Shown piece after piece: positions 12,893-21,542 of a DNA stretch of 64,000 bases. The notes beneath the pieces were generated by a model. That model was not told the origin of the DNA, made no database searches, and saw only the letters and a list, made by a program, of their open reading frames with translations. The stretch is from the NCBI RefSeq assembly GCF_902713615.1, contig NC_052149.1, positions 49,313,213 through 49,377,212 on the forward strand. Direction: 5' to 3'. Within the stretch, counting starts at the first letter, position 1. Each line of letters begins with the position of its first letter. This DNA comes from Scyliorhinus canicula. Lineage: Eukaryota. The position numbers and the translations under genes were made by a program.

Positions 12893-13242
12893 CAGCAGGG
12901 TAGCATGGTGGTTAGCATAAATGCTTCACAGCTCCAGGGTCCCAGGTTCGATTCCCGGCTGGGTCATTGTCTGTGTGGAGTCTGCACGTCCTCCCCCTGT
13001 GTGCGTGGGTTTCCTCCGGGTGCTCCGGTTTCCTCCCACAGTCCAAAGATGTGCGGGTTAGGTGGATTGGCCATGCTAAATTGCCCGTAGTGTCCTAATA
13101 AAAGTAAGGTTAAGGGGGGGGGGGGTTGTTGGGTTACGGGTATAGGGTGGATACGTGAGTTTGAGTAGGGTGATCATGGCTCGGCACAACATTGAGGGCC
13201 GAAGGGCCTGTTCTGTGCTGTACTGTTCTATGTTCTATGTTC
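12893..13242 (+). mobile_element. tRNA-derived V-SINE (HE1-like) with CR1-type tail, young copy
   Basis: A/B boxes (ggttcgattcc); V-domain-like core gtgggtttcctccgggtgctccggtttcctcccaca; tail gggccgaagggcctg...(TTCTATG)n shared with CR1; near-identical to 19796-20148 and 42492-42843. Confidence 0.93.
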
Positions 13243-17442: not shown

Positions 17443-18490
17443 CTGAAAACAGAAAGAAACTTCAGTGAACTTTGTTTCAACCAAGTTTCTTCTTTGTAGT
17501 GTCGGAAATGAGTATGCCTCATCATTGAGTCATTAAGGAAATCAAAATCTTGTTCAATTGCAAAAAGGAAGAGCCCTGGGTGTCAGTTAGCCTCAACTGT
17601 GGCTCTTTGAGCTCTAAAAATGTAATCCTAACCAAATTAACAAATTTACTAAACTATGAGTATTTATCAGCTAAACTCACTTTAATGTGCAGACTCCTGG
17701 GTTATCCGAGGAGTGGGATATATCCCCTTCTCCTTGGAGACATTGGCCGAGGGCCGTTCAGCACGTCTCCACAAACGGGGACCAGACAGAATGGCACTTA
17801 TGGGGGTCTCCCAGGGGTTTGAAGACCCACCCCCCCCCCTCTCCGAGGTGCATGCCCTTTGGGAAGGGTGGTATCCTGGCACAGCTGGTGCCACCCAGGC
17901 AACCTGGCAGTACCAGCTCGGCACTCTGCCAGCCTAGCACTGCCCAGGTGCCCAGAAGATAGAGTGGTTCCCTCACATAGTGCGGTAGGGCTGGGGGGGC
18001 GGTGGGAAATCAGGGGTAGGTTCAGGGACATCGGAGATCGGGACGCCATTTCTTGTTACACTGAAGAGTTCTATGGAGCGGAGTTCCTCAGTGCACAGGA
18101 CGGGACTATGTGCAGCCTCGGCCGCTTGTTCCCTGCTGAGGCCCCCTATCTAATGTGAGTCGCGTTTTATAGCCTTGTGTTTCTTGGCCCTGCGAGCAGC
18201 GTGAATGGTGCGGCTAAAAGAGCTCGCCAAGAGACTTTGTTCCCATTTAGTTAAATCGTGCCCATAGAAAGCAATGAAGAGGATAGGAACAGACTTCAGG
18301 ACAGCATACACAAACTGGTGAAATAAAACAACAGCAGATAAAATTTAGCGCAGAGAAGTGTCAGATGATTTATTTTGGCAGGAAGAATGAGGAAAATATG
18401 AACAAAGTGGAACAATTTTAAAGCAGCTGTGGTTTTGGGGGGTGGGGGGCTGGTGTACAGCCTCAGCAGAACGGTCTAAGGTGTATACCG

Positions 18491-21177
18491 TCTGGTAAAC
18501 CACTGGTGCACCTCTATTAGGTGATGTATGGTAGGACCTGTACTACAGGTACGTTGGTAGTCCCTGCCTGCTGGCTCCGCCCAGGAGGCGGAGTATAAAT
18601 ATGTCCCCCCCCCATGCTGAAGCCATTTCACCAGCTGCTGTGGGAGGCCACACATCTTAGAGCAATAAAGCTTCAGTTGTATCCAACTCTCGTCTTTGTG
18701 CAATTGATCGTGCATAAATTTATTGCCTAAGATTTTCAAAAGATGGACGTCCGTATCAAACCGGATCGCCTGCAGCTGGATCTGCAATCAAGCGAGGCCA
18801 AAAAGGACTTTCAACACTGGCTAGCTTGTTTCAAGGCATACATCAAATCGGCGCCCAGCCCTGTCTCGGAGGCTCAGAAGATACAGATCCTGTACTCAAG
18901 ATTGAGCTCCAGCATCTTTCCGCTAATCCAGGACGCGCCGAAATACGCCGAAGCCATGACCCTTCTCAAAGAGAATTACGCTCAGAAGACGAATACGCTC
19001 TTCGCCAGGCACGTACTCGCCACTCGCTCTCAACTCACTGGTGAGTCCATAGAAGACTTCTGGCGGGCCCTAATCCTACTAGTCCGGGACTGTAACTGTC
19101 AGGCCGTTACAGCCACCGAACATTCAAACCTCCTCATGCGGGATGCGTTTGTTACGGGGGTTGGGTTGGACCTCATATGCCAACGACTGGTAGAAGGGGC
19201 CATGCTCGATCTAGCAGAGACAAAGAACTAGCGCTCTCTATGACAGTCGCCTCGTGCAATGTTCAGGCCTTCACCCCCAGCCGCGCGGCCCATCCCTCCT
19301 ACGCATCGTGGACCCCACAGACGGCCGCCCCAGCGGGGGCCTTACCCAGCCAATACGCCTGCGCCACACGCCAGCCCGCGAACACCGGGGGTCCCCGATG
19401 TCACTTTTGCGGCCAGGAGAAACACCCTCGTCAATGCTGCCTGGCCCGCGCTGCCCTTTGTAAGGCTTGCGGTAAAAAGGGGCACTTCGCCGTCGTGTGC
19501 CAGGCCCATGCAGTCGTCGCTATCGCCCCCCACCCCCCTCGTTTACGGACAATGGGCGCTGCCACCTTCACCTCCCCGGACCACCTGCTACCAGTGGGCA
19601 CTGCCATCTTCCGCTCCGAGCAACACTTGCGGCCCATGGGCGCCACCATCTTGTTCAACCCCCGCCACGTGCGGCCCATGGGTGCCGCCATTTTGCCCTC
19701 CTCAAGATCTTCAGGCGCCGCCTTCATGTCTCCCCCATGGTACATGGGCACTGCCAGCGTTCTAGGACCCGTGCCTCCCGGCTCTCCATCATCCTGGGGC
19801 AGCAGGGTAGCATGGTGGTTAGCATAAATGCTTCACAGCTCCAGGGTCCCAGGTTCGATTCCCGGCTGGGTCACTGTCTGTGTGGAGTCTGCACGTCCTC
19901 CCCCTGTGTGCGTGGGTTTCCTCCGGGTGCTCCGGTTTCCTCCCACAGTCCAAAGATGTGCGGGTTAGGTGGATTGGCCATGCTAAATTGCCCGTAGTGT
20001 CCTAATAAAAGTAAGGTTAAGGGGGGGGTTGTTGGGTTACGGGTATAGGGTGGATACGTAGGTTTGAGTAGGGTGATCATGGCTCGGCACAACATTGAGG
20101 GCCGAAGGGCCTGTTCTGTGCTGTACTGTTCTATGTTCTATGTTCTATCCAACACCAGCGACGACCGACTACGACTCGCCTCAGTGACCATCGACCAGTC
20201 TCGTCCTCATAACCTGGCCACCGCATAGACCAGCGTTAAAATCAATGGAGACGTAACCTCTTGCCTGCTGGACTCTGCGAGCACCGAAAGCTTCATCCAC
20301 CCGGATACAGTAAGGCGCTGCTCCCTCATGGTACACCCCGCCAACCAAAAAAACTGCCTGGCCTCCGGATCCCATTCCGTGGCGATCCGGGGGTACTGTA
20401 TGGTCACACTGACGGTCCAGGGTGTAGATTCAGCGGCTTCCACCTCTACGTCCTCCCTAACCTCTGCGCTGCCCTACTACTCGGCCTGGACTTCCAGTGC
20501 AACCTCCAGAGCCTAACCCTGAAATTTGGCGGGCCCCTACCACCCCTCACTGTGTGCGGGCACGCGACCCTAAAGGTCGATCCGCCTTTCCTCTTCGCAA
20601 ATCTAACCTCAGATTGCAAACCCGTCGCCACCAGGAGCAGACGGTACAGCACCCAGGACAGGACCTTCATCAGGTCCGAGGTCCACCCGGCTGCTTTGGG
20701 AAGGCATCATCGAGGCCAGCAACAGCCCCTGGAGAGCCCAAGTGGTAGTGGTGAAAACGGGGGAGAAACACCGAATGGTCGTGGACTACAGCCAGACCAT
20801 CAATCGGTACACGCAGCTCGATGCGTACCCCCTCCCACGCATATCTGATATGGTCTATCAAATATTGTAAATGTAAATGTAAAAAGAAAACCATTTGTTG
20901 TGTATAGTTCTCCACCACTCCCGCTGGACTCAATTTTAACAGGGGGTAAATGTGATAAACCACTGTTGCACCTCCATTAGGTGATGTATGGTAGGACCTG
21001 TACTACAGGTACGTTGGTAGTCCCTGCTTGCTGGCTCCGCCCAGTAGGTGGAGTATAAATATGTGTGTCCCCCATGCTCCAGCCATTTCGCCAGCTGCTG
21101 TGGGAGGCCACACATCTTAGAGCAATAAAGCCTCAGTTGTATCCAACTCTCGTCTTTGTGCAATTGATCGTGCATCA
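18491..21177 (+). mobile_element. Gypsy LTR retrotransposon, internally deleted (gag, protease, RT start), with a nested SINE
   Basis: 227-bp LTRs 18491-18717 and 20951-21177 (about 16 mismatches); TSD TACCG/TACTG; PPT acagggggtaaa; gag from 18743 with CHFCGQEKH and CKACGKKGHFAVVC knuckles; protease LLDSASTESF; RT SPWRAQVVVVK...RMVVDYSQTIN...DAYPLP ending near 20865. Confidence 0.95.
19796..20148 (+). mobile_element. V-SINE (HE1-like), young copy nested in the Gypsy element
   Basis: Near-identical to 12893-13242. Confidence 0.93.
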
Positions 21178-21542
21178 TACTGAAAGTGGCAAGAAAAGCT
21201 GAAAAGGCTGCTAAATATCAAAGTGTTCTTTGGCTTTGTTAATTGAAGAATAGAGTACAACAGCAAGGAAGCTACCCTAAACCTGAATAAAAGAGAATTT
21301 AAACCTGGGCAACACTTTAGGAAAGATTTGAAGGGCTTTGAGAGGGTGCGGACGAGATAGCTTGACCTGCGCCAGGGACAAGGGGCTTCAGTTATGTGGA
21401 GGGACTGGAAGAAGCTGGAGCTGTCTCCTCAGAGCAGAGAAGATGAACTTGAGATGGGATCGAGATGTCCAAACAATGAGTGGGTTTGGCTGAGTAAATA
21501 CAGAGAAGACCAGAAATTTAAGTCGATTGGCAAAAGAAACAG

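Follow-up and report, generated by a model that had tools for sequence, protein, structure and literature searches.

Primer-binding site pairing with an internal R site in a catshark Gypsy retrotransposon clade: evidence for self-priming

Structure of the element in the window

The window analyzed here is a 64-kb stretch of the Scyliorhinus canicula genome. Between 18491 and 21177 it carries a decayed copy of a Gypsy LTR retrotransposon (Table 1), the two LTRs of which differ at 16 places over 227 bp. LTRs with TG..CA ends, a polypurine tract and a short target duplication are present in the family, and the ends of the window 5' LTR have decayed. Target duplications of 5 bp are readable in further family copies too, and those largely or wholly free of insertions measure 4.3-4.9 kb. 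The preliminary description had placed TATAAA at 18594 and the gag ATG at 18743, and both coordinates are correct.

Table 1. Features of the Gypsy copy in the S. canicula window
Feature	Position	Strand	Remarks
Left target-site duplication	18486..18490	+	5 bp; partner 21178-21182, one mismatch
5' LTR	18491..18717	+	227 bp
TATA box	18594..18599	+	76 nt upstream of the primer-site 3' end
U3/R inverted repeat around the predicted start	18608..18646	+	Weak in the window copy, z +0.2
Predicted transcription start, A of Inr-like CCATTTC	18625	+	Inferred from TATA spacing and the stops of fused copies
Primer site in R	18654..18669	+	3' end is the poly(A) hexamer 18664-18669; predicted cut 18669/18670
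Rest of R and U5, minus strong-stop template	18670..18717	+	Predicted stem stacked on the primer duplex
Primer-binding site (PBS)	18719..18733	+	1 nt past the LTR end; complementary to 18654-18669
gag and linker	18743..19793	+	First frame open to 19228, then broken
SINE-like repeat, later insertion	19794..20151	+	Missing in copy L078
Broken protease and RT start	20152..20863	+	About 2.5 kb of RT-RNase H-integrase deleted at about 20854-20863
Polypurine tract region	20934..20950	+	sequence
3' LTR	20951..21177	+	227 bp; second primer-site copy at 21114-21129

Two other repeats of the window were recorded. The SINE-like repeat inside the Gypsy copy is near-identical to one at 12893-13242, and the two form a young pair. 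A second Gypsy element with a TGGCGAC primer site had also been reported; we found an LTR end followed by this tRNA-type site at about 52059 on the minus strand, and no partner LTR for it between 44000 and 56000 of the window.

Classification of the clade

By its domain order, LTR ends, polypurine tract and target duplication, the element is a Ty3/Gypsy LTR retrotransposon. A natural open reading frame of family copy L069 encodes RT, RNase H and integrase in the Gypsy order, the order protease-RT-RNase H-integrase is also found in the relatives L081, L082 and L087, and the best PDB match is Ty3. The closest source-named relatives of the reading frame come from catsharks and rays (60-80% identical), followed by those of a coral, a nematode, a leafhopper, a tapeworm and a fluke (51-56%). 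Scans of viral contigs gave no relative. In a tree of 37 RT-RNase H rows, from which two rows were omitted as too short, a branch with 100/100 support separates 20 self-complementary elements from two TGG-primed elements. A TGG primer-binding site is present only in the distant outgroups L168, L170 and L172. The Pfam chromo domain had no match in the three intact relatives (L081, L082, L087) or in the integrase frame of L079. Gag carries two CCHC knuckles in L072, L081, L082, L086, L087, L089, L161 and L162.

Two peculiarities of the database records should be mentioned. In L084, L161 and L162 the element is circularly permuted within its contig; these may be one-LTR circles or assembly loops. 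L161-L168, L170 and L172 are animal-type Gypsy elements in records titled as bacterial genome bins, and are likely host contamination.

Pairing between the primer-binding site and the LTR

No TGG-type primer-binding site stands behind the 5' LTR, as the preliminary description had noticed. None of 30 family copies has one, and we therefore rejected the explanation that a TGG site was merely deleted from the window copy. In its place, 18719-18733 is complementary to 18654-18669: the duplex has 15 bp and one bulged A and includes the AATAAA (18664-18669); recomputation reproduced this pairing. The observed local score against the LTR, 12, was reached by none of 20,000 shuffles and by nine of 25,346 other 25-mers of the window, and on these two controls chance was rejected as the source of the complementarity. 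Among 29 other family copies, chosen for their similarity to the window, 21 pair at 16 of 16 positions and eight have one or two substitutions. Among the copies compared, only the window copy has the bulged A and lacks CA at its 5' LTR end.

The pairing had been thought possible only at the 5' LTR. This holds for local folding, as the 5' LTR site lies 49 nt from the primer-binding site and is predicted to fold locally. It does not hold at long range, where the site in the 3' LTR (21114-21129) could also pair. A fold of the leader (18625-18745) includes the LTR/PBS stem, with a z score of -2.33.

Covariation across families and hosts

We examined whether the pairing is kept where the letters have changed. 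A genome-wide pattern scan, in which the pattern fixes the AT-rich core only, gave 8,397 matches, compared with one for the reversed control. The rows compared were 30 pattern matches, 30 gag matches taken regardless of their leader and 35 junctions from foreign-animal contigs; in its own genome the window gag query returned only the same family, and a diverged query together with the pattern reached other families. An anchor was found in 82 of 97 rows, which gave 67 distinct site/PBS pairs, and the 15 rows lacking one were dropped. At the variable positions 6-13, the 67 pairs form a mean of 6.9 of 8 Watson-Crick pairs, compared with 4.2 for swapped partners. The mean for own pairs is lowered because six faulty rows (L124, L167, L179, L189, L191 and L200, in which the site is disrupted or the junction or anchor was called wrongly) were retained. 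The observed pair total was matched by none of 10,000 permutations, a value not to be read as a probability as the families are related.

RNAalifold recovered 13 pairs in 23 hand-picked own-genome variants, seven of them with changes on both sides. At least 10 pairs were formed in 26 of the 35 foreign-animal rows; the other nine were degenerate or uncallable. A primer-binding site beginning with TGG was found neither among these 35 rows nor among the own-genome rows. The register of the pairing is fixed: the site ends with TAAA before GCC or ACC, and its partner begins 1 nt past the CA of the LTR. Within this frame the letters of the primer-binding site vary freely at positions 7-13 and the LTR site changes along with them. 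Thus, the complementarity is not lost in diverged relatives, as would have spoken against the first interpretation, and is conserved with changed letters across families and in other animals. Of 55 anchored own-genome rows, 53 have AATAAA or ATTAAA as the hexamer at the paired site, and 30 of these rows came from the pattern that fixes five of the six hexamer letters.

Predicted transcription start and leader folding

The distance from the TATA box to the 3' end of the site is mostly 74-77 nt in the own-genome families, with 82-87 nt in one group and 69 nt in another, and an Inr-like motif often lies about 31 nt downstream of TATA. From these sequence features, the start in the window copy is predicted at 18625, and the piece from cap to hexamer would be 45 nt long. 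Four raw RNA runs compared with copy L010 gave 72-653 reads each, mostly partial and with no peak at a start or an end, and were uninformative.

An inverted repeat of U3 and R spans the predicted start. It reaches z < -2 in 12 of 23 families, with letters that differ among them, and a control stretch upstream of TATA does so in three of 23. In L204-L232 and L173-L196 the Inr-like motif sits in the loop of this repeat. Both arms occur together solely in 3'-LTR RNA or in DNA. The repeat may possibly serve in 5'-3' tethering. In single-sequence folds of most families the primer duplex is accompanied by an adjoining U5 stem; the consensus fold (RNAalifold) retained the primer duplex alone and did not recover the U5 stem. 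No third leader duplex was consistent across the single-sequence and consensus folds.

Insertions with the LTR-PBS junction fused to reverse R

If the primer is sometimes copied beyond its paired part, insertions in which the LTR and primer-binding site run into a reverse copy of R are expected. Such insertions are present in the genome. Twelve of 380 exact matches to the LTR-PBS junction continue as the reverse complement of R or the LTR. Allowing two mismatches gave 42 fused loci, and one more from the exact search brought these to 43 loci, which correspond to 40 events. The joint was in the primer register in 16 of 16 cases, though a gap of 0-30 nt was allowed.

Among the 40 events, the reverse copy ends at or before 43 nt in 17, at 44-47 nt in 14, at 49-75 nt in three and at the LTR start in six, or 0.022 stops per nt up to 43 nt, 0.237 at 44-47 nt and 0.0036 beyond. 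Microhomology and decay leave an uncertainty of a few nt in these positions, and some were assigned by visual inspection, as for L238, L248, L252 and L255. The edge at 44-47 nt coincides with the start predicted from TATA and Inr at 45 nt. Beyond the stop, the sequence jumps to gag, pol, LTR or host DNA, with partners up to 4.4 kb off within the element and in both orientations. The two arms of the fused copies differ by point changes. An extra T at the predicted start was seen in four fused copies and in none of about 100 partly overlapping normal LTR reads. In four of the 43 fused loci, a sense U5 piece starts within 3 nt of the predicted cut.

We predicted in advance that the stop edge shifts with TATA spacing, and this held in small numbers. 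In the family with a spacing of 84-86 nt (30 of 64 matches examined), short extensions end at 28, 40, 41 and 41 nt, and four times at 54 nt. The stops at 54 represent three independent events, of which two lie exactly on the Inr A and one is 3 nt short. In the family with a spacing of 69-70 nt (all seven matches examined), short extensions end at 37 and 41 nt (two events). Most other matches in these two families extend far into U3, many of them by a palindrome artefact. About 13 of the 30 matches in the second family begin 33-39 nt beyond the cut because U5 ends in a palindrome there; we rejected these as fused copies, read them as LTRs with an internal deletion and left them uncounted.

Two fused copies, L247 (G000:C5:19875555) and L249 (G000:C15:105962080), are about 400 bp long and consist of an LTR and its own inverted U3-R. 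Each has two U3 ends and is flanked by 5-bp target duplications. These full-length fused copies therefore existed as cDNA before integration.

Several further structures were found during this search. In L263 (G000:C8:63926750), a 44-nt reverse copy of R is followed by a return to the normal leader and gag start. L261, L267, L278 and L285 have a common rearranged junction into the integrase region, so that the mis-copied element itself has spread. Inverted internal segments are joined to LTR pieces in L233, L236, L242 and L244, as expected from auto-integration or strand jumps. In another family, the LTRs of L293, L295, L302, L304, L310, L313 and L314 seemingly lack about 35 nt of U5, and the gap begins immediately downstream of the poly(A) hexamer, where the cut is predicted. 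It is either one amplified deletion or the result of repeated events.

Proposed priming and alternative explanations

The preliminary description had suggested self-priming from an R site about 30 nt past the start, and the covariation, the fixed register and the fused insertions support this. We consider it very probable that the clade primes itself from the R site. The primer is probably a capped fragment of about 45 nt of the element's own RNA, cut after the poly(A) hexamer, as judged from the sequences. In this scheme, transcription would start about 31 nt after TATA, at 18625 in the window copy, and the last 12-16 nt of the primer would pair with the primer-binding site; the complementarity and its covariation are observed, and the RNA pairing is predicted. 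The RNA would then be cut at TAAA|GCC, probably by the RNase H that the family encodes, by analogy with Tf1. RT would extend from the last A, add 1 nt and then use U5 as template as far as the cut, and strand transfer would rely on the 15-25 nt that separate the cut from the poly(A) site. Priming would take place in cis. Normal plus-strand synthesis would copy the paired part of the primer only; in about 3% of copies, the plus strand may have run along the primer toward its 5' end and then jumped, giving the fused insertions.

Some observations fit the capped 45-nt primer less well. The stop edge also falls where the left arm of the U3/R hairpin ends on its inner side, and a structural cause is possible. 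Six of the 40 events extend across U3, for which a 45-nt primer by itself offers no template, and they require a second jump, a fold-back or a primer from the RNA 3' end. The shifted edge consists of three events at 54 nt and two in the third family, and four more extensions of the second family stop earlier, at 28-41 nt. Start, cut and primer are read from sequence, and the four RNA runs have neither a start peak nor an end peak.

An alternative is that the element primes itself with another primer, namely a trimmed piece of 12-16 nt, a short R transcript that was polyadenylated too early, or the 3' end of a genomic RNA trimmed as far as the hexamer. The 45-nt copies would then arise when plus strong-stop DNA ending at the primer-binding site lands on the R site of an intact second RNA and runs to its cap. 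A primer from the 3' end, or a fold-back, would give the six U3-crossing events, a short primer would leave no unpaired 3' tail at the second strand transfer, nearly all own-genome families have the site at the poly(A) hexamer, and the sense piece in L262 begins at the predicted cap. Against this alternative, there are 31 short extensions but six long ones, and every joint is in register and seamless. The extra T at the start is found in two long copies, consistent with synthesis pausing at the cap before it jumped. The 5' site, just 49 nt from the primer-binding site, folds locally. We regard a primer of this other kind as unlikely, and the capped fragment cut from the 5' end of the same RNA as the better account of these data.

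Retroviruses such as HIV-1 carry poly(A) hairpins, and the stem could function to hide the 5' poly(A) signal with priming left to something else. The canonical hexamer within the paired site in 53 of the 55 anchored own-genome rows agrees with such a function. However, the stem is retained in foreign relatives whose site reads GTTAAA, TTTAAA or TTAAAA, and also in L085 and L086, where the canonical A(A/T)TAAA lies outside it. Nor would hiding the signal require a constant 1-nt spacing from the LTR end or lead one to expect fused copies, and no other primer site is present. Signal hiding as the whole function is thus very unlikely. The earlier suggestion that the stem suppresses 5' polyadenylation is not supported as its main role in view of L085 and L086, and stands as a possible second role. 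Such a role beside priming is plausible because the hexamer lies nearly always within the stem in this genome, and we lean only slightly against it.

Inverted repeats promote template switching, and the fused copies could be products of host replication or repair switching templates at the 16-bp inverted repeat, or assembly artefacts, and say nothing about priming. A hairpin does span the stop region, and one class of long matches in the second family is an artefact of the U5 palindrome. However, the ends of two fused copies are of the integrase type and carry 5-bp target duplications, the partners after the joint are distant and in both orientations, the point changes between the arms are unlike fold-backs of reads, and the stop edge follows TATA spacing. 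Template switching also leaves the covariation and the missing tRNA site unexplained, and this origin is highly improbable. That a host RNA fragment such as a half tRNA or an snRNA is the primer and the LTR match incidental is scarcely credible, even though half-tRNA priming exists in some Copia lineages (PMC6317226, excerpt), as the primer-binding site is free at positions 7-13 with the LTR site tracking it, and an Rfam search of 18480-18800 gave nothing near threshold.

A wider reading of self-priming from R is that it arose independently of Tf1/sushi in a pan-animal Gypsy clade, of which this genome contains at least 8,000 copies, with a long capped primer that has the poly(A) hexamer as its 3' end, a stem of dual role and transfer by an overhang. 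In this reading, one stem would both silence the 5' poly(A) site and mark the cut. The 29-nt overhang of the primer would pair, at the RNA 3' end, with the U3 arm of the conserved hairpin, and this pairing would carry strong-stop DNA to the transfer site. The mis-copied insertions would preserve the primer, and its 5' end could be read from the genome alone. Taken as a whole, this reading is tentative, and we would sooner expect it to fail in some part than to hold.

Comparison with known elements

Tf1 has been proven to prime itself and its chromovirus relatives are assumed to do so, and Tf1/sushi elements have the self-primer at the very 5' end of the RNA. Like the present clade, Tf1 and Tf2 of Schizosaccharomyces pombe, Tj1 and the Tf1/sushi chromoviruses have no tRNA site and a primer-binding site complementary to their own 5' LTR. 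Their leader is a three-duplex 'pretzel', and a U5 stem adjoins their primer duplex; in the present clade single-sequence folds predict such a U5 stem in most families, the consensus fold keeps the primer duplex alone, and no third duplex is consistent. In Tf1, an RNase H cut of the RNA frees the primer (PMC7175516, excerpt), and a copy of the primer is often found at the end of plus-strand DNA (PMC11042837, excerpt). Unlike in Tf1, the paired 12-16 nt of this clade lie about 30 nt inside R and end on the poly(A) hexamer, with a predicted 5' overhang of 29 nt. That the site is off the RNA 5' end is indicated by the 74-77 nt from TATA to its 3' end and by the stops of fused copies at 44-47 nt, both pointing to the predicted start. 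Chromoviruses are distinguished by a chromodomain at the integrase C-terminus (bioRxiv 2022.12.06.519325, excerpt); in contrast, the three intact relatives here have none, and Gag has two CCHC knuckles. The LTRs of the clade are about 200 bp, compared with a median of 536 for Sushi (PMC3601003 supplement 1, excerpt). On the features tested, the missing chromodomain and a primer site away from the predicted RNA 5' end, we rejected membership in Tf1/sushi.

The retroviral poly(A) hairpin of the HIV-1 type likewise has the hexamer in a stem at the RNA 5' end. There the partner lies within R/U5 and priming is by tRNA, unlike in this clade, where the partner of the hexamer is the primer-binding site itself.

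The Mag lineage is characterized by two CCHC zinc knuckles in Gag, and its members use tRNA primers. Two Gag knuckles, short LTRs and many animal hosts are Mag-like traits of the present clade. LTR medians of the Mag A, B and C clades (Jule, SURL, CFG1, Hydra2-1) are 164-195 bp (PMC3601003 supplement 1, excerpt), and the lineage has a wide range of animal hosts (PMC6238403, excerpt). The knuckles and short LTRs, set beside Mag by description, suggest membership as a lead only. Motif and term searches of PMC2774666 and its supplements gave no match. The CsRn1 clade has a CHCC Gag motif, a tRNA-Trp primer-binding site and a 4-bp target duplication (PMC2582038, excerpt); membership there was rejected on the CCHC knuckles, the lack of a TGG site and the 5-bp duplication.

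For plant Tcn1 (Gypsy) and TAR (Copia), self-priming has been predicted from complementarity of at least 10 bp between the post-LTR sequence and the 5' LTR (PMC6317226, excerpt). These belong to other lineages and hosts than the present clade, and in the excerpt their prediction comes from complementarity only. In full-text literature searches, which included excerpts of PMC3601003, PMC6934838, PMC6317226, PMC4600332, PMC11042837, PMC7175516, PMC6238403, PMC2582038 and bioRxiv 2022.12.06.519325, the self-primed elements were confined to Tf1/sushi, to Tj1 and other elements of fission yeast, and to Tcn1 and plant TAR, and elements lacking a primer-binding site were represented by GalEa and the bivalve TRIM elements. 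The self-pairing of this clade and priming from its R site were not found in the full-text literature searched; older key papers, Repbase and GyDB may hold them.

The clade-wide feature is real, and is best read as a variant of Tf1-like self-primed reverse transcription with unusually direct genomic traces of the primer. If self-priming from R is true, a second abundant animal lineage with another primer geometry would mean that tRNA-free priming arose more than once in Gypsy. Such elements would be missed or mis-typed by tools that seek a tRNA site, and would escape silencing by tRNA fragments at the primer-binding site. The fused insertions offer a readout of primer length and start site from sequence, usable for any many-copy family, and they name the exact RNA species and cut site to look for.

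The N-terminal approximately 100 residues of a catshark nuclear envelope protein isoform (P0008) are the Gag of this clade, which is either an exonised element or a gene-model error.
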